A stretch of DNA of 64,000 nt from Promethearchaeota archaeon (GTDB lineage Archaea > Asgardarchaeota > Lokiarchaeia > Sigyniarchaeales > SOKP01): contig JAEOTR010000025.1 in the NCBI GenBank assembly GCA_016839705.1, positions 1 to 64,000 on the forward strand, written 5' to 3'. The notes under the pieces were generated by a model that saw only the letters and a program-made list of their open reading frames with translations, was not told the DNA's origin and made no database searches. The position numbers and the translations under genes were made by a program. Positions 612 through 8,667 of the stretch are shown here, piece after piece. How positions within the stretch are numbered: the stretch's first letter is position 1; every line of letters starts with the position of its first letter.

Positions 612-1751
612 TTAAGTCTTTTCTAATTCCATTTCACTAATTGCCTTTCCTGAACGAAATGGTGTGTCTTCGAGAGATAGACCTGCTTCATAATCGAATT
701 TTTCTTTAAAAGCCTCATTTAATGATTGAAAATAGAGTGAAAGCGGTAAATTTTGAGGACAATTATTATCACAATTCCCACATTCAACACATCTGTCGGC
801 ATCGTGAGCTATCCTTGTTAATTGGTATGTTACTTTATCTATGGTTTTATCCTTTCTCTTTTTCTGGAGTATACAATCCACACAGTAGCAAACTGGACAT
901 CCTCTAATGCATGTATTACACATAGTACATTTAAGTAACTCAGCAATCTTTTCTTCTTGAGAAAGTTTATCCCATTCTTCCAAATCTTTTGTCCTTTTTT
1001 CTTTCGCTTTTTCAATTATTCCATTGAATGTATCTTCATGATCTTTTTTGATATTAGCTGGGAGTGCTTTCTTAGAAATACCTGATTTTTCAAGAATTTC
1101 ATTTCCTTTATCCGAGTAAACTTTCAAGATAATCTCTTCTGAATCAATCGGAATACCGAGATCGCTAACTGTTAAATCTGCAACCACAGGTATCTTCCGA
1201 TAACATCGTAAACAATTTTCAGCAACAGAAAGATTGAGTTCTTTTGTACTTCCATCGTCTAGTTTGACAATTAGTCCCTTATCTCCGACTTTTTCTTTAA
1301 CAATCTTCGTTGGATCCACATCTTTAATGGATCTCATCTCTCGTCCTGCTTTTGGAAGCATTCCTCTATCTTCTATCCCAACTATAAAGAGATTATCTAA
1401 ATTCACTTGTCTGATTTTAGCGAGTTCAATCAAAGCTCTTGTATCACAAGGTCGTGCAATAAGTCCAACTTTCTCATTCATTGCACCCGCGACAGATTTA
1501 TGAAGATATTTTGAAGCAGAATCAGTCCTCGCATATCCAAAAGCGATTAGAGGTGATAAAGGAAAATCTGAAAGATCTTCTTCTTTTTCAACTAATTTTG
1601 GTTGAACAGTAAATCGATCAACATTTCCCGATTTTTTATCTACTCTCAATTGAGCTCCAATAATTTTGTCTACGACTTTTTCCTTTAATAACGTTGCTAA
1701 GATTTTAGAAAAGTCTTCATTCTTAATCAGATATTCTGCCATTGAATCCAT
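612..1751 (-). CDS. FdhB/FrhB-family (F420 hydrogenase/dehydrogenase beta-like) Fe-S flavoprotein
   Basis: ARPCDTRALIELAK FrhB-like motif, CLRC, C-terminal CTMCNTCIRGCPVCYCVDC and CVECGNCDNNCP; start may be the ATG at 1742. Confidence 0.8.
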   Translation of the reverse strand: MDSMAEYLIKNEDFSKILATLLKEKVVDKIIGAQLRVDKKSGNVDRFTVQPKLVEKEEDLSDFPLSPLIAFGYARTDSASKYLHKSVAGAMNEKVGLIARPCDTRALIELAKIRQVNLDNLFIVGIEDRGMLPKAGREMRSIKDVDPTKIVKEKVGDKGLIVKLDDGSTKELNLSVAENCLRCYRKIPVVADLTVSDLGIPIDSEEIILKVYSDKGNEILEKSGISKKALPANIKKDHEDTFNGIIEKAKEKRTKDLEEWDKLSQEEKIAELLKCTMCNTCIRGCPVCYCVDCILQKKRKDKTIDKVTYQLTRIAHDADRCVECGNCDNNCPQNLPLSLYFQSLNEAFKEKFDYEAGLSLEDTPFRSGKAISEMELEKT

Positions 1752-1862
1752 GTATTATCAACTCTACAATTTATACAAATAAAATCCTTTTTTTTACTAA
1801 ATTTCCAAACAATTTAAAATTATTTTCTATAATTTCTTACCTTTTTTATTATAAAATTTTTT

Positions 1863-1937
1863 ATGTGTGTTATGGTGCACCCATATCTTCGGCATGAGTT
1901 CTCGTTTTTATAACTCAGCTTCATTAGTCAACACATT
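1863..1937 (-). promoter_or_regulatory. Eukaryote-type SECIS element candidate in the mvhD 3' UTR
   Basis: mRNA reads UGUGUUGACUA-AUGA-A-GCUGAGUU-AUAAAAACGAG-AACUCAUGC-C-GA-AG...UAACACAC: AUGA/GA core (1921-1924 and 1889-1890), 8-bp helix with one bulge, A-run 11 nt after AUGA, 19 nt after the stop of a two-UGA gene. Confidence 0.85.
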
Positions 1938-1943
1938 ATATTT

Positions 1944-2399
1944 TTAAGCTTTAGCTTTTGCCTCAGCTTTTTTAGGTGTGCCACTTTTAATTCGCGTAGG
2001 ATTAGGTCCAAGTTTTCGTATAGTTTTATCGAATTCTGTAGCTTCTCTTTGAAATTTTTGACCTTCCGCTGCGGTGCAATAAATAATCTTGATTCGTTCT
2101 GGACTCATACCAACCGCTTTTAAAATTTCCTTGGTATATTCAACTTGCCGGTATGCATAATAATTTCCAGTTTCATAATCACACTCACCAGGATATCAAG
2201 CATTAATAATAACACCATCAGCGCCTCGTCCAAACGCACGCATAATAAGGTCAGATCCTACACGACCACTACACGGTACTAAGACATTTCGAATCGAATC
2301 GGGATACTGTGCACGAATAGTACCTGCCATATCTGCAGAACCGTATCCTCATTTCCAACAAGCGTATACAATAATTTTAATATCTTTCTCTTCTGCCAT
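1944..2399 (-). CDS. mvhD: Methyl-viologen-reducing hydrogenase delta subunit MvhD/VhuD, selenoprotein (Sec17, Sec68), 151 aa; absent from the ORF track
   Basis: Hand translation MAEEKDIKIIVYACWKUGYGSADMAGTIRAQYP...VPCSGRV...GADGVIINAUYPGECDY...SPERI...CTAAEG...LGPNP; TGA at 2349-2351 and 2196-2198 fall on conserved Cys positions; GAGGT RBS upstream. Confidence 0.95.
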
Positions 2400-2412
2400 T
2401 TTCCTTACCTCT

Positions 2413-4392
2413 CTATTCCTCCAATGGTAATAATTGATCTACTAATGCCATATATTGATCATCTCTAAAGTAAGTTAAATCAATTGCTTTTGAAGGACAT
2501 AAACCAGCACAGGTTCCACACCCTCGGCAATTTATTAAGTCAACAACAATGCTTCCCGCTTCATTTATCGAAATTGCTCTATATGGACAAGCTTCTATAC
2601 ACTTATAGCATTTAGCACAACGTTCATCTGATGGTGTAGCTCGAATTAATTCCATAGTATATTCTCCTTTACCCATTGGAATACCTGCAACTGATGCTGC
2701 ACCTCTCGCTTGACTTACTGCTTTATCGATCTCTTTTTGACCTTGTACAGAACCGCAAATGTAGATTCCCGGAACTTTTGTGCTAATCGGATCAAGTCTA
2801 GCATGATATTCTTTTAAGAAACCATCAGGGCTTTTTTCCATTTTTAATACTTTAGCAATTTCGATTGTTCCTTGAGATGGAAGAGAAGCAGATGATAATA
2901 CAACCATATGAGCTTCCATCGTAACAACTGAATCAGTTCCAACAGGTTCAAATTGAACAGTCAGGTTTTTTGTTAAGGAATCTTCTGTTATACTCCCAAC
3001 GAGTCCCTTTACGAATAGTATTCCTGCATCTCGGGATCTTCTGTAGTATTCTTCGTATCCTTTTCCAGCACATCGCATATCTATATATGTACATACGATT
3101 TGTGTATCAGGATATTCTGATTTAATTAACTTGGAATTTTTAAGAGACAGATTACAACAAATAACGCTACAATGAGCATTCTTATTTACATCTCGTGATC
3201 CAACACAGTTAATGAATAATACTTTTGTAGGACGTTTACCGTCGGAAGGACGCTTTAAATGTCCATAAGTTGGGCCATTAGGAGCCAAGATCCTCTCGAG
3301 CTCTATTTGATTGATTACATTATCATATACACCATAACCGTAATCATCACCCTTGTAAAGATCCCAACCCGTAGCAACTATTATAGTACCAACTTTAAGC
3401 TCAATAATTTCATCCTGTTGACTGAAATCTATGGCCGATTGCTCACATGCATCAACACATGCAAAACATTCAACACATACTGTTCTATCGAGCTGTGAAA
3501 CAGCGGGTACTGCTTGAGCAAAAGCAATATCAATAGCTTTTCTAGCTGATAGGTGCTCATCAAATTCATTGCTTGTATATACAGGACACACATCGGTACA
3601 TGAACCGCAACCTGTACATTTATCTTCAAGGACAAATCGGGCTTTCCTTTTCACTTTAACTTCAAAATTACCAATGTATCCATCAATTTCAGTAACTTCG
3701 CTGTATGATAAGATTTCAATATTTGGATGACGATTAGCTTCAAGCATTTTAGGACCCAAGATTCATATTGAGCAATCATCAGTTGGAAAAGTTCGGTCTA
3801 ATTGAGCCATCCTACCACCAATGGTCGTATTCTTTTCAACTAAATATACTTTATATCCTGCATCACCTAAGTCAATCGCTGTAGATAACCCTGCAATTCC
3901 CCCGCCAACTACAAGAGCAGTGGGTTCTACTGGCACTGTTTTAGTTGGCACGTCTTCTAGTAATCTCGCTCGAGCAACTCCTGCTTTAATTAATTCGATT
4001 GCCTTTAAAGTAGCTCTTTCACGTACTTCAGGAGCTTGATGTACAAAAGAACAATGCTCTCGAATATTTACGAATTCCAAGTATCTTGGAGGCAATCCCA
4101 TCTCAGTAAGTATGGCATGAAATACAGGTTGATGAGTCTTGGGTGTGCATGCAGCAACTAAAATCCTGTTAAACCTTGCATCTTCATGTTTCTCTTTAAT
4201 TTCAGCAGAACCGCCTTCAGTTCACAAGGAAAGATACGGATAAGCCCAAACATCCTCTATCTTATTTATCTCTTCGACTATCCTCGGAATATCTAGTATC
4301 CCTGCTATGTTAATACCTCAGTGGCACACGAACACGCCTATTCTAGGCTGAACTTCGTCTTCATTCTTTTCATTGGTCTGTTTGCCAGACAA
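2413..4392 (-). CDS. hdrA: Heterodisulfide reductase subunit A, selenoprotein (Sec25, Sec57, Sec210), 659 aa
   Basis: One frame from TTG 4392 (GGTGA 5 nt upstream) through TGA 4318-4320 (RIGVFVCHUGINIAG), 4222-4224 (YLSLU) and 3763-3765 (TFPTDDCSIUILGP); joins ORFs 3763..4101 and 2413..3759; GGGIAG FAD motif, AACTP, NIREHCS, ferredoxin motifs. Confidence 0.95.
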
Positions 4393-4447
4393 AATATTCA
4401 CCTTTAGTTAATTTAACCTCCTAGGTTTTTAAGGCTATAATTTTTCC

Positions 4448-4469
4448 ATGATCCTAAAATTAGGATCAT
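4448..4469. promoter_or_regulatory. Perfect 10-bp inverted repeat upstream of hdrA (candidate operator or leader hairpin)
   Basis: ATGATCCTAA-AA-TTAGGATCAT, about 55 nt upstream of the hdrA TTG. Confidence 0.45.
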
Positions 4470-4737
4470 TCTCATTGCTAAATTAAATAATTTATATTAT
4501 TAAAATTAAATTATTATGAAAAGTTATTTCACTCGGATTAAATTCTGGTGATTTAACAATGTTTTATGAATCCACTTTTTATGAGAAAGCATAAATTGAC
4601 GAATACCACTCAAAAGTTTATAATTAAATTATTGATTTTCACTATTCTTTGTCCCTATTTTATCACTTTCGATCTTGATCTTTTAGAACGGAGTCCGAAA
4701 AAAAATATCAAAAAATGAAAAAAAAGTTTACCAACAA

Positions 4738-6648
4738 TTAAGTTACAACAATACGAACCCGATCTTGATTAATGATGTGTCTTATTATATCTTGTTTATC
4801 CCCTTTACGGTGAAGATATACCCGAAAGGTCGCAAAATATATACCTGGTTCATTATAACTATGTACAACTGAGGATTGGATCTTATTTTCAATACCCTTA
4901 AGATCCTCATGATAAGGAAAAGTACCTGAGCCATCAAAGTCCCACTCTACTCTTACGAAGTATCCCGTGTTAGGTGGGGCTTCTGCTTCACCAATTAAGG
5001 TTATAGATTGACCTGTTTTGATATCTGCGCGCTTATTCCCATCGACATTAGCTTGGACTAAAGGTTGAATACCCAAACGCTCTAAGGGTGTGTCTGATAG
5101 AATCAGAGCTCCATCATCATTGAATTTATATTGCGAGCTAGGTGGTGGTTCTACCCCTTCTTCAACCCATTTGATAAGATCTGTTAATGATTGAACAATA
5201 TTACTGCCATAGAGAATGTATCGAGTTTGAGTTTCTGGTGTAAAGGGTGGTACATGGGTTGCATTTTCAGTCCAATAAATTCTGAAACATTTGTTAAATG
5301 CATCACCTAGTTGTTCTTTTACAGACTCTACATAAGGTCGGATGGCGTCAGGCCAACATTCACGATCCTGAGCATGTTGTAAAAGGATCATCTTCCCATG
5401 GATTTTTCCCGAAGGAGTAGGGAGAAAGTCAATTGATCGGGTTGTAGGCTTATAAACTGGATATCCGTCAATGAAGAAATGCTTCATATTTGGGTATTTT
5501 TCAGTTACAAAATGTCGATGATGAAAGGTAAATGCAAGCATTCTTCGGTTGTCGATATGGACTTTATCCCCTGGTTCCACATCATCTAACCATTGAACTT
5601 CGTATAAAGCAACCACTACATCTTTGACATTATGCGTACAGAACAATTTGCGACCGTTAGGAAGTTGGATCGTACAACCATGATATCTACCAGGATTTTT
5701 ACATTTGATCCTAAGACCTACCTTCAAATTTTTGGGATAACGCGTTTCGTTGTGTAGCAAAGCTTCTAGGGGGTCACCTTGAACCAATGGCAAAAACTGT
5801 TCCATGCTTATAATTTCGAGTATGATTGCCTCTTCATTTATAAGGAGTGAAGTTACTATTGGATCATTATCAGCTCCTTCAAATCCAGGTTCTGTCCAAA
5901 ATACCTTCCAATAACTAGGATCAGGAAGGATTTGTAATCCCAATATCCATAAAGAATTAGAAATTAGTTGAGCTTCTGCCCCACGAGGATAACCTGCACG
6001 ATATAGTGTACTAAGTGCCTGTTTCTGTGATCCACTATCTAACACTTCAAATGGATTGCCATTTCCACCAGGGTCGGTCGCATCGACAATATCCTCAATT
6101 TTATCGCCTAAAATTTGACCCGCCCAAGCAGCAATAGACCAGAAAAAAGTGTTCAAACCTGCTCGATTTACGATAAAAGGTAGGAATCCATCCCATATCT
6201 CAACGGGTGCTTCAGCACAGTTTATACTTCGCATACCTCCTCCACTACCTCCATAGAGATACCCATGATGAGGTATCGCACCATATATTTCTTTAGCAAA
6301 TTCCTGACCAAACTTAGCTGTTGCATAACTCGCTTTCCATTGGAGAAGTGAGGCATCATCCTTGAGTTCTCTCATATTTCCTCTGTGTCCTTGATTTGAT
6401 TCAACGTAATAACCACGATGAAGGAAAGCAACTAGAAGTGATTGATTTGAATAACCAGCATATTCACTTCCACCTATACCACCTTGAAGAAATTGGATGA
6501 ATCTTCCATCATAGTTTTCAATTTCTGGAAAACAAAGAATGAAATTAGTGTAAGTACCCTCGAATGATCCATGCACAAATCGATGACGGATTGGTTTATC
6601 ACGCCATTCATCAGTATCAATAATGGCAGGACCAAAATAATCTTTCAT
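4738..6648 (-). CDS. Alpha/beta-hydrolase-like (tannase-like) protein with C-terminal PKD-like domain, paralogue 1
   Basis: YLYGGSGGG nucleophile-elbow motif; C-terminal EWDFDGSG...HSYNEPGIYFATFRV PKD-like pattern. Confidence 0.65.
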   Translation of the reverse strand: MKDYFGPAIIDTDEWRDKPIRHRFVHGSFEGTYTNFILCFPEIENYDGRFIQFLQGGIGGSEYAGYSNQSLLVAFLHRGYYVESNQGHRGNMRELKDDASLLQWKASYATAKFGQEFAKEIYGAIPHHGYLYGGSGGGMRSINCAEAPVEIWDGFLPFIVNRAGLNTFFWSIAAWAGQILGDKIEDIVDATDPGGNGNPFEVLDSGSQKQALSTLYRAGYPRGAEAQLISNSLWILGLQILPDPSYWKVFWTEPGFEGADNDPIVTSLLINEEAIILEIISMEQFLPLVQGDPLEALLHNETRYPKNLKVGLRIKCKNPGRYHGCTIQLPNGRKLFCTHNVKDVVVALYEVQWLDDVEPGDKVHIDNRRMLAFTFHHRHFVTEKYPNMKHFFIDGYPVYKPTTRSIDFLPTPSGKIHGKMILLQHAQDRECWPDAIRPYVESVKEQLGDAFNKCFRIYWTENATHVPPFTPETQTRYILYGSNIVQSLTDLIKWVEEGVEPPPSSQYKFNDDGALILSDTPLERLGIQPLVQANVDGNKRADIKTGQSITLIGEAEAPPNTGYFVRVEWDFDGSGTFPYHEDLKGIENKIQSSVVHSYNEPGIYFATFRVYLHRKGDKQDIIRHIINQDRVRIVVT

Positions 6649-6750: not shown

Positions 6751-8667
6751 TTACGATACTACAACCCGAACTCGAGATTGATTAATAATATGGTGTATAA
6801 TATCATGTTTGTTACCATTACGCTCGAGTAAAACTCGAAAGGTAACAAAGTAAGTACCAGGTTGACTATACTCATGTGAAACTGTTGTTTTTATTTTGTT
6901 TTCAGTTCCGCTTAATTCTTCTCGATGTGAAAACTTACCTAAGCCTGCAAAATCCCATTCTAGCCTTATAAAGTAACCAGTATTGGGTGGTGCTTCGGCT
7001 TCACCTTCTAATATTATTGTTTGATCGACTTTTACGTGAGTACTTTTTTTACCCTTGATGTTTAATTGAACAGTAGGTTGAATACCCTTCCTTTCAGAAG
7101 CATGTTTTGGTAATCGAAGTGCTGAATGAATATTAAAATTATACCTAGTGCTAGGTGGTGGTGATATACCTTCTTCTATCCATTTAATGAGGTCATTCAT
7201 CGCCTGAGAGACAATAGAACCCCATTGAATATATCTGGTTGATTCTAAGGGAGTTAATGGTTGAATATGACATGCATTTTCTGTCCAATATATACGAAAA
7301 TACTTTTCTAAACTTTTACCTAGATGATTTTTAACGGACCTTATGTAAGCACGAGCATTACTAGGACAGGCATCACAATCTTGGGCATTTTGTATGATGA
7401 TCATTTTTCCATGAAATTTCCCAGAAGGAACCGGAATGTAATCCAGTGAGCGTGAAGATGGTTTGTAAATGGGATTCCCATCAACAAAGAAGTTTTTCAT
7501 TTCTGGATAATGATTACTAACAAAGTGTCGATGGTGATGACTAAATGCTACAAGTCGACGATTGTCAATATGTATCTTATCTCCAAGTTCTACATCATCT
7601 AGACTATGACGCGAAAATAAGGCAACTAAGACATTATCTACATTATGAGTGCAATACATTTTACGGCCATTAGGCAACTGCATGGTACAACCAACATATT
7701 TCCCCGGATTTTTGCATTTTACCTTGATACCAATATTTGCTTCTTTGGAAAACCTAAGATCTCTTAATAGACCTTCATCTAAGGCATTTTCCACAATTAA
7801 AGACCGAATTTGATTTACCTTAAGTAACTCTTCCACTTCAATGTCTTCTTCTATAAGTAAAGATTTTACAATAGGATCATCATCACTTCCTTCGAATCCA
7901 GGCTCTACCCAGAAAGTCTCCCAATGCTTTGGATCAGGTAAGATCTGCATAGAGTAGGACCAGAATGGGTTTGGTCCTAGTTGTGCTTCTGCTCCACGGG
8001 GAAAGCCTGATTGATAGAGTCTCGCTAGAGCTTCTTTCTGTAAATTATTATTTAATGTAGTAAATGGATTTCCACTTCCACCAGGATCAGTAGCATCTAC
8101 AACGTCTTTAATTTTATCTCCTAAGATAAGAACTGTCAATGCGGTTATTGAATCATAAAAAGTAAAAAAACTTGGATATGACATGATCATGGGCATGTAT
8201 CCATCCCAGAATTTAATTGGAGCTTCTGCACATTTGATACATCGATATCCTCCACCACTACCACCATAGAGATAGCCATGATGAGGTACTTCTCCATATA
8301 CCTTCTTAGCAAACTCACGTCCATATTTAGCTGTTGCTGCACTTGCTTCCCAGTCAAATACTGAAGTATGATTACGTAATACCCTTAAATCGCCAGTGTG
8401 ACCTTGATTTGATTCTACATAATAGGCATTGTTACGAAGTGCAAGATAAAGTCCCCCTGCATAATAACCAGTATATTCGTTTCCTCCTAATCCTCCTTCT
8501 AAGTGTTGGATAAAGCGTCCACCATAATTATTATCTTTGGGAAAGCAAAGAATGAAGCGTGTGTAAGTATTATCAAAAGATCCATGTACAAATCGATGTT
8601 CTATTGGTTTATCTCTCCATTCATCAGTATCAATAACAACAGGACCAAAATAATCTTCATTTAACAG
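6751..8667 (-). CDS. Paralogue 2 of the hydrolase-PKD family; extends 157 codons upstream of the called ORF, probable CTG start
   Basis: Frame is open from 8667 (LLNEDYFGPVVIDTDEWRDKP...YLYGGSGGG) and colinear with paralogue 1; no in-frame ATG/GTG/TTG before 8196; GGTGA 7 nt before CTG. Confidence 0.7.
   Translation of the reverse strand: MLNEDYFGPVVIDTDEWRDKPIEHRFVHGSFDNTYTRFILCFPKDNNYGGRFIQHLEGGLGGNEYTGYYAGGLYLALRNNAYYVESNQGHTGDLRVLRNHTSVFDWEASAATAKYGREFAKKVYGEVPHHGYLYGGSGGGYRCIKCAEAPIKFWDGYMPMIMSYPSFFTFYDSITALTVLILGDKIKDVVDATDPGGSGNPFTTLNNNLQKEALARLYQSGFPRGAEAQLGPNPFWSYSMQILPDPKHWETFWVEPGFEGSDDDPIVKSLLIEEDIEVEELLKVNQIRSLIVENALDEGLLRDLRFSKEANIGIKVKCKNPGKYVGCTMQLPNGRKMYCTHNVDNVLVALFSRHSLDDVELGDKIHIDNRRLVAFSHHHRHFVSNHYPEMKNFFVDGNPIYKPSSRSLDYIPVPSGKFHGKMIIIQNAQDCDACPSNARAYIRSVKNHLGKSLEKYFRIYWTENACHIQPLTPLESTRYIQWGSIVSQAMNDLIKWIEEGISPPPSTRYNFNIHSALRLPKHASERKGIQPTVQLNIKGKKSTHVKVDQTIILEGEAEAPPNTGYFIRLEWDFAGLGKFSHREELSGTENKIKTTVSHEYSQPGTYFVTFRVLLERNGNKHDIIHHIINQSRVRVVVS

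Follow-up and report, generated by a model that had tools for sequence, protein, structure and literature searches.

Tandem HdrA and VhuD genes sharing one selenocysteine (Sec) insertion signal have been described in Asgard archaea. Mariotti et al. 2016 (PMC4989117) reported that all HdrA and VhuD genes of Lokiarchaeota stand in tandem with the sole lokiSECIS downstream of VhuD, that HdrA never ends in UGA, and that the pair most likely occupies a single polycistronic mRNA, on which as many as six UGAs are spread over ~2 kb. Huang et al. 2024 (PMC11227280) described type I eSECIS-like elements of hdrA-frhD and extended the account to >400 Asgard genomes. Both the arrangement and the shared-SECIS reading are already known, having been published in 2016 and 2024, and the five UGAs of the locus studied here stay below the published maximum. 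The initial annotation of this locus, which gave the shared element as an inference, overrated its novelty, since PMC4989117 already states both the configuration and the inference. In other archaea, the SECIS of M. maripaludis was shown to tolerate distances to 679 nt (PMC9622424). While the present locus adds no new principle, it offers a large comparative set and Cys-only controls matched within its own genome, and the side hairpin with its three-way junction and a Sec-Sec gene family are additions to the account given in the main texts of these two papers.

In this study, we analysed a window of DNA, that is, the whole stretch of 64,000 nt, in which hdrA and mvhD (HdrA-VhuD) lie in tandem (Table 1). 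With a probability of about 0.92, the pair is a Lokiarchaeia-type selenoprotein operon served by a single lokiSECIS, presumably on one mRNA. The three UGAs reported initially in hdrA, the two in mvhD and the length of the gap between the genes are all exact on the minus strand, as is the hairpin, whose AUGA starts 19 nt past the mvhD stop, with a GA partner, 8 pairs and an A-run beginning 11 nt after AUGA. The TTG start chosen for hdrA fits a conserved SD-TTG arrangement in relatives. From the first hdrA UGA to the AUGA of the element, the distance is 2,396 nt.

Table 1. Features of the hdrA-mvhD locus and its surroundings (positions in the window)
Feature	Position	Strand	Remarks
FrhB/FdhB-like Fe-S protein gene	612..1751	(-)	no UGA; 192 nt past mvhD; possible third cistron
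Helix I	1863..1936 (1936-1931 with 1868-1863)	(-)	closes whole element; covariation weaker than in helix II
3' side hairpin	1871..1885	(-)	UAUGG / CCAUA, loop GUGCA; within internal loop, giving three-way junction
lokiSECIS core	1889..1924	(-)	AUGA 1924-1921, GA 1890-1889
Helix II of lokiSECIS	1920-1912 with 1900-1891	(-)	U bulge 1894
Apical loop of lokiSECIS	1911-1901	(-)	11 nt, A-rich, AUAAAAACGAG, ending AG
mvhD (VhuD/FrhD)	1944..2399	(-)	151 aa, ATG 2399, stop TAA 1946-1944
Two putative Sec codons of mvhD	2351-2349 and 2198-2196	(-)	in-frame TGA
Intercistronic gap hdrA/mvhD	2400..2412	(-)	13 nt; not in frame with hdrA; contains mvhD SD-like AGAGGT
hdrA, heterodisulfide reductase subunit A	2413..4392	(-)	659 aa from TTG 4392, three putative Sec, stop TAG 2415-2413
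hdrA UGA 3 (TDDCSI-U-IL)	3763..3765	(-)	canonical HdrA Sec position; U in 71/71 homologues
hdrA UGA 2 (LSL-U-TE)	4222..4224	(-)	labile site; homologues: U 9, C 62
hdrA UGA 1 (VFVCH-U-G)	4318..4320	(-)	conserved Cys aligned; U in 71/71 aligned homologues
AT-rich BRE/TATA-like block	4494..4517	(-)	~100 nt upstream of hdrA; near-identical in most orthologous loci printed

The hdrA product matches a solved HdrA over its full length (E 2.7e-204), and the mvhD product is likewise a full-length VhuD/MvhD. In alignments with solved structures, the five UGAs of the two genes face Cys or, at the canonical Sec site, an unresolved residue, and their positions are U or C in the alignment of 71 homologues; they almost certainly encode selenocysteine. 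The in-frame stop codons might alternatively mark hdrA and mvhD as pseudogenes, or the organism might generally read UGA as Cys or Trp, a view of negligible probability that is contradicted by the joint conservation of the UGA positions and the element: 71 homologues, as distant as ~67% identity, retain the same UGA positions. Against it also speak the use of TGA to close 14.5% of the long ORFs of the genome and the presence of tRNA-Sec and EFSec. Apart from the sites in Table 1, a second labile hdrA Sec site (Cys85, counted from GTG 4401) has UGA in 12/71 homologues (L076, L079, L084, L090, L092, L101-L104, L106, L110 and L111), and two homologues, L113 and L116, have a UGA near the C-terminus.

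The element itself conforms to the published lokiSECIS in having AUGA directly before the stem and GA (AA being the other form) directly after it. Its helix II of nine positions, made of 8 pairs and an A.C mismatch next to the core and interrupted by a 1-nt U bulge, corresponds to the 9-bp stem of lokiSECIS; the mismatch and the bulge set it apart from the published elements, the latter being common to a few close relatives and missing from most orthologues. The loop AUAAAAACGAG has the lokiSECIS length of 11 nt, adenines in the first five positions and a last G that, as usual, follows A. As in the lokiSECIS tandems of PMC4989117 and PMC11227280, hdrA lies right upstream of vhuD with a very short gap, a multi-Sec HdrA is combined with a two-Sec VhuD, the hdrA stop is UAA or UAG, the Sec sites fall on conserved Cys including the canonical one, and the sole element stands past vhuD, close to the stop of the UGA gene and absent behind Cys paralogues. 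The span of 2.4 kb is typical of the family (2,235-2,406 nt).

The geometry had been called eukaryote-style in the initial annotation, which is right for the AUGA/GA core and for the distinction from the methanococcal type, but not for helix II, which is of the short lokiSECIS type. Eukaryotic type I SECIS, such as those of SELENOP and SELENOL mRNAs, have the 3' location, the AUGA/GA kink-turn core, the apical adenines, the lower helix and the action at a distance in common with the locus; on the other hand, the canonical eukaryotic element has a longer helix II and an unpaired internal loop, whereas the element here has a hairpin in this loop and would serve two cistrons. In SELENOP, two elements serve one cistron, and at this locus one element would serve two. 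The methanococcal/Methanopyrus SECIS shares the 3' UTR position, and that of vhuD combines AUGA with GA/AA motifs and acts on two Sec codons, but the GAA/A bulge of this type, flanked by a long lower and a short G-C upper stem, has no match in 1701-4750.

A covariance model trained on 31 cores from other loci gave a sole significant match over the whole 64 kb (1888-1925, 32.4 bits, E 1.2e-5), with the next candidate at 15.9 bits; Rfam at gathering thresholds gave no match in the window. Given a fold z-score of -2.67 for 1860-1945, the covariance-model match and the conservation described below, the hairpin is no product of chance; helix I was not predicted by RNAalifold. With covariance and pattern models that recognise known SECIS shapes only, the scan for further elements proposed in the initial annotation yielded no second one, be it Loki-type or methanococcal, within hdrA or ahead of it.

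The conservation expected for the hairpin was found as well, a single element being kept at the same place, within ~20 nt of the mvhD stop, in 80/80 related loci, with two-sided, compensatory changes at 8/9 pairs of helix II among 70 orthologous sequences. Among 78 related hdrA-mvhD loci, about one third of which had also been in the training set, the covariance model found one match of at least 24 bits in 77 and a weak one, in the corresponding position, in the remaining locus; a second element elsewhere in these loci did not appear above 18.6 bits. When the three Sec pairs of this genome are taken in, 53 loci carry four UGAs and 28 carry five, over spans of 2,235-2,406 nt. The two further Sec pairs of this genome, on C15 (3+2 UGA) and C81 (2+2), have one element each, after mvhD. 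The Cys-only hdrA-mvhD pairs of the same genome are without the element, the hdrA of the C18 pair ending in TGA, and no element was found behind its five Cys-type mvhD. Across ten genomes from other families of Asgard archaea, 46/47 Cys-type mvhD lack the element pattern, and 7/13 Sec-type mvhD have strict pattern matches, most of the others being variants recognised by eye; in the whole-genome searches with the covariance model no more than 150 candidates were scored and elements in distant Asgard genomes were missed, so that blanks there carry no weight.

As a mechanism, we propose that one mRNA would begin ~100 nt before hdrA and reach the end of the element or beyond, and that ribosomes would initiate separately on hdrA and on mvhD. 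The AUGA/GA kink-turn core would probably be bound by a putative L7Ae/L30-type or dedicated protein, SBP2, which binds the canonical eukaryotic SECIS, being reported absent from Asgard archaea, and the bound factor would recruit EFSec with Sec-tRNA, so that any in-frame UGA on the mRNA beyond a minimal distance may be recoded, whichever cistron it belongs to. The predicted products are a flavin-bifurcating HdrA and a [2Fe-2S] adaptor MvhD with Sec for Cys at conserved sites. The AT-rich block upstream of hdrA (Table 1) may act as promoter, and the FrhB/FdhB-like gene is found ~190 nt beyond mvhD in 40/42 loci, thus the element may sit inside a longer mRNA. Further upstream of hdrA, two adjoining related genes occupy 4738-6648 and 6751-8196 (-) of the window; the first is a weak tannase/feruloyl-esterase match, the second resembles a shorter paralogue, and no link of this gene pair to the Sec operon was seen.

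If the element recodes any UGA on the mRNA, hdrA cannot end in UGA and mvhD can. The stop codons of Sec-hdrA are 47 TAA, 34 TAG and 0 TGA (n=81) and TGA closes 5/83 mvhD, against a genome background of 14.5%, or 24% where another gene follows closely; these are counts that, coming from related genomes that are not independent, overstate significance and are supportive rather than a p-value. Likewise, Cys codons of hdrA can then become UGA without a new signal, and the Sec state of hdrA UGA 2 is scattered over five separate places in a quick tree, as expected under such recoding. A single element for UGAs to ~2.4 kb upstream and across cistrons, as held initially, is supported, and the three refutation tests that were run, out of four named initially, left it standing. 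If true, one 3' element acting on two separately initiated cistrons over 2.4 kb would mean that Sec decoding in archaea and eukaryotes needs no cap, closed loop or fixed distance, presence on the same mRNA being the sole need, a point made in 2016.

It is conceivable that hdrA has its own, differently shaped signal (bacterial-type hairpins behind each UGA, a GAA/A element as in methanococci, or one located in the 5' UTR), the 3' hairpin then serving mvhD only. A 5' UTR SECIS has one documented archaeal case (PMC4989117), and a perfect 9-bp palindrome follows an AUGA upstream of hdrA at 4475-4449 (-); however, its 4-nt loop lacks adenines, it has no match to the covariance model and it is not conserved in orthologues, and we rejected it as a 5' SECIS. 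Synonymous diversity after each hdrA UGA is not reduced (0.96-1.16 of expectation), which argues against bacterial-type internal elements, and the GAA/A pattern is absent from 1701-4750 and turned up no more than four times in 71 loci, as scattered single matches, none conserved. That hdrA avoids UGA as its stop speaks for a downstream signal, and a private hdrA signal is very improbable. The inverted repeat at 4449-4475 (-), just downstream of the promoter-like block, may be an operator or form a hairpin in the 5' UTR.

As co-transcription of hdrA and mvhD is inferred only, it may also be supposed that the two genes have separate transcripts and that decoding of the hdrA UGAs is either inefficient, with no cis element involved, or due to a SECIS in trans. 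Words present in metatranscriptome runs amounted to 5-9%, with short assembled contigs only; an 86%-identical contig spans the hdrA-mvhD junction and an identical one runs from mvhD into the element, but such contigs can derive from DNA and show no single transcript. Separate transcription is hard to reconcile with a gap of ~12-21 nt with SD in the loci examined and with the conserved promoter-like block upstream of hdrA, or with stop-codon usage, as Cys paralogues may stop at UGA and Sec-hdrA never does; moreover, three signal-less UGAs would presumably yield almost no full-length protein. We consider this supposition even less probable than a private hdrA signal. Read-through of hdrA into mvhD as an in-frame fusion was ruled out by the gap, the usual 13 nt being out of frame.

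Besides helix I and the core with helix II, the lokiSECIS includes a small hairpin 3' of GA, the three together making a three-way junction. This side hairpin occurs in 138/139 distinct strict cores from the fetched loci, compared with 24 +/- 4 after shuffling. It has a G-C-rich stem and a GC-motif loop, often GNRA-like; 52 different stems of both polarities were counted, and 134 of the cores carry the GC-type motif in the loop. Elements that follow mvhD, selD, prxL and genes of the Sec-Sec family described below have the side hairpin, as do elements in distant Asgard families. Among hdrA-mvhD orthologues its stem is nearly invariant, so the covariation is one between gene families. A text search of the literature gave no description of it, and it is absent from the main texts of PMC4989117 and PMC11227280, the figures or supplements of which may show it. 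We regard it as an even chance that the Asgard SECIS is a three-way junction with a required 3' side hairpin, perhaps the site of a SECIS-binding factor, rather than a shortened eukaryotic hairpin, with cross-cistron recoding then general; that such recoding would be a general property of the element is suggested by a second gene family, in which one SECIS follows two UGA cistrons in three genomes. The three-way junction is a fuller RNA model and would improve SECIS searches and reporter design.

This second family was met in the same genome as a gene of ~130-159 aa with two adjacent in-frame TGAs (HAD-U-U-ADV) at L123:2291-2810 (C73:86790-87310, +), beside arsR-like and SBF/Acr3-type transporter genes and with a canonical lokiSECIS 5 nt past its stop. 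Homologues with 2-3 TGA (UU, CUU, UGUU) occur in 117/135 genomes of the family; the gene has no Pfam or NCBIfam match and is not listed among the Asgard selenoprotein families of Huang 2024 (PMC11227280). Three tandem pairs of such genes (L152:1027-2026, L153:955-1915 and L159:916-1926) have one SECIS, after the second gene, the first (CUU; stop TAA or TAG) being without element, and six others (L154-L158 and L160) have an element per gene. By gene and element order, the three pairs are an independent putative instance of SECIS sharing across a cistron boundary, and the tandem pairs together offer a natural comparison between elements that are shared and elements that are private. At C73:89123-89159 (+), 1.8 kb downstream of the Sec-Sec gene and with no clear UGA gene upstream, lies a degenerate SECIS-like copy (UUGA core, intact side hairpin, 24 bits), possibly the relic of a lost paralogue.

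The Sec machinery, proposed as a further check in the initial annotation, was found in the genome, namely SecS, a PSTK-like kinase, EFSec, tRNA-Sec and two UGA-containing SelD; PSTK (E 1e-42) and EFSec (E 1e-69) are clear best matches with scores under the curated cut-offs. The tRNA-Sec gene is placed where the ends of contigs C16 and C87 overlap, with EFSec, 4 kb away, on one side and SecS on the other, at L125:5955-6080 (= C16:22954-23079), with the identical sequence ending C87; the overlap of 127 nt puts the three genes in one neighbourhood. After removal of ~35 nt of the D loop, the gene gives a 9-bp acceptor stem, a 6-bp D stem, a UCA anticodon, a long variable arm and a 4-bp T stem (9/4 fold). 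These ~35 nt are an intron of the D loop; in the Loki tRNA-Sec published earlier it is the T loop that carries an intron, of 31 nt. Because of the D-loop intron the gene was missed by ARAGORN, and with the Rfam tRNA-Sec model it stays below cut-off; a separate ARAGORN tRNA-SeC call falls on C18.

The selenoprotein set of the genome comprises HdrA, VhuD, PrxL and the two SelD, and this set, the SECIS type and the linkage of EFSec with tRNA-Sec suggest that the host is a member of Lokiarchaeia. For a vhuU/mvhA selenoprotein, no attributable element was seen among the SECIS matches listed in the genome. PrxL selenoprotein genes with elements are located at L121:3380-3950 (C13:69380-69950) and L122 (C88:38581), the frame of the former ending ~95 nt before its element. 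At L120 (C5:4000-8000), Sec-containing selD genes stand in tandem with their own element each, type II-like behind the first and type I behind the second, and both elements include the side hairpin.
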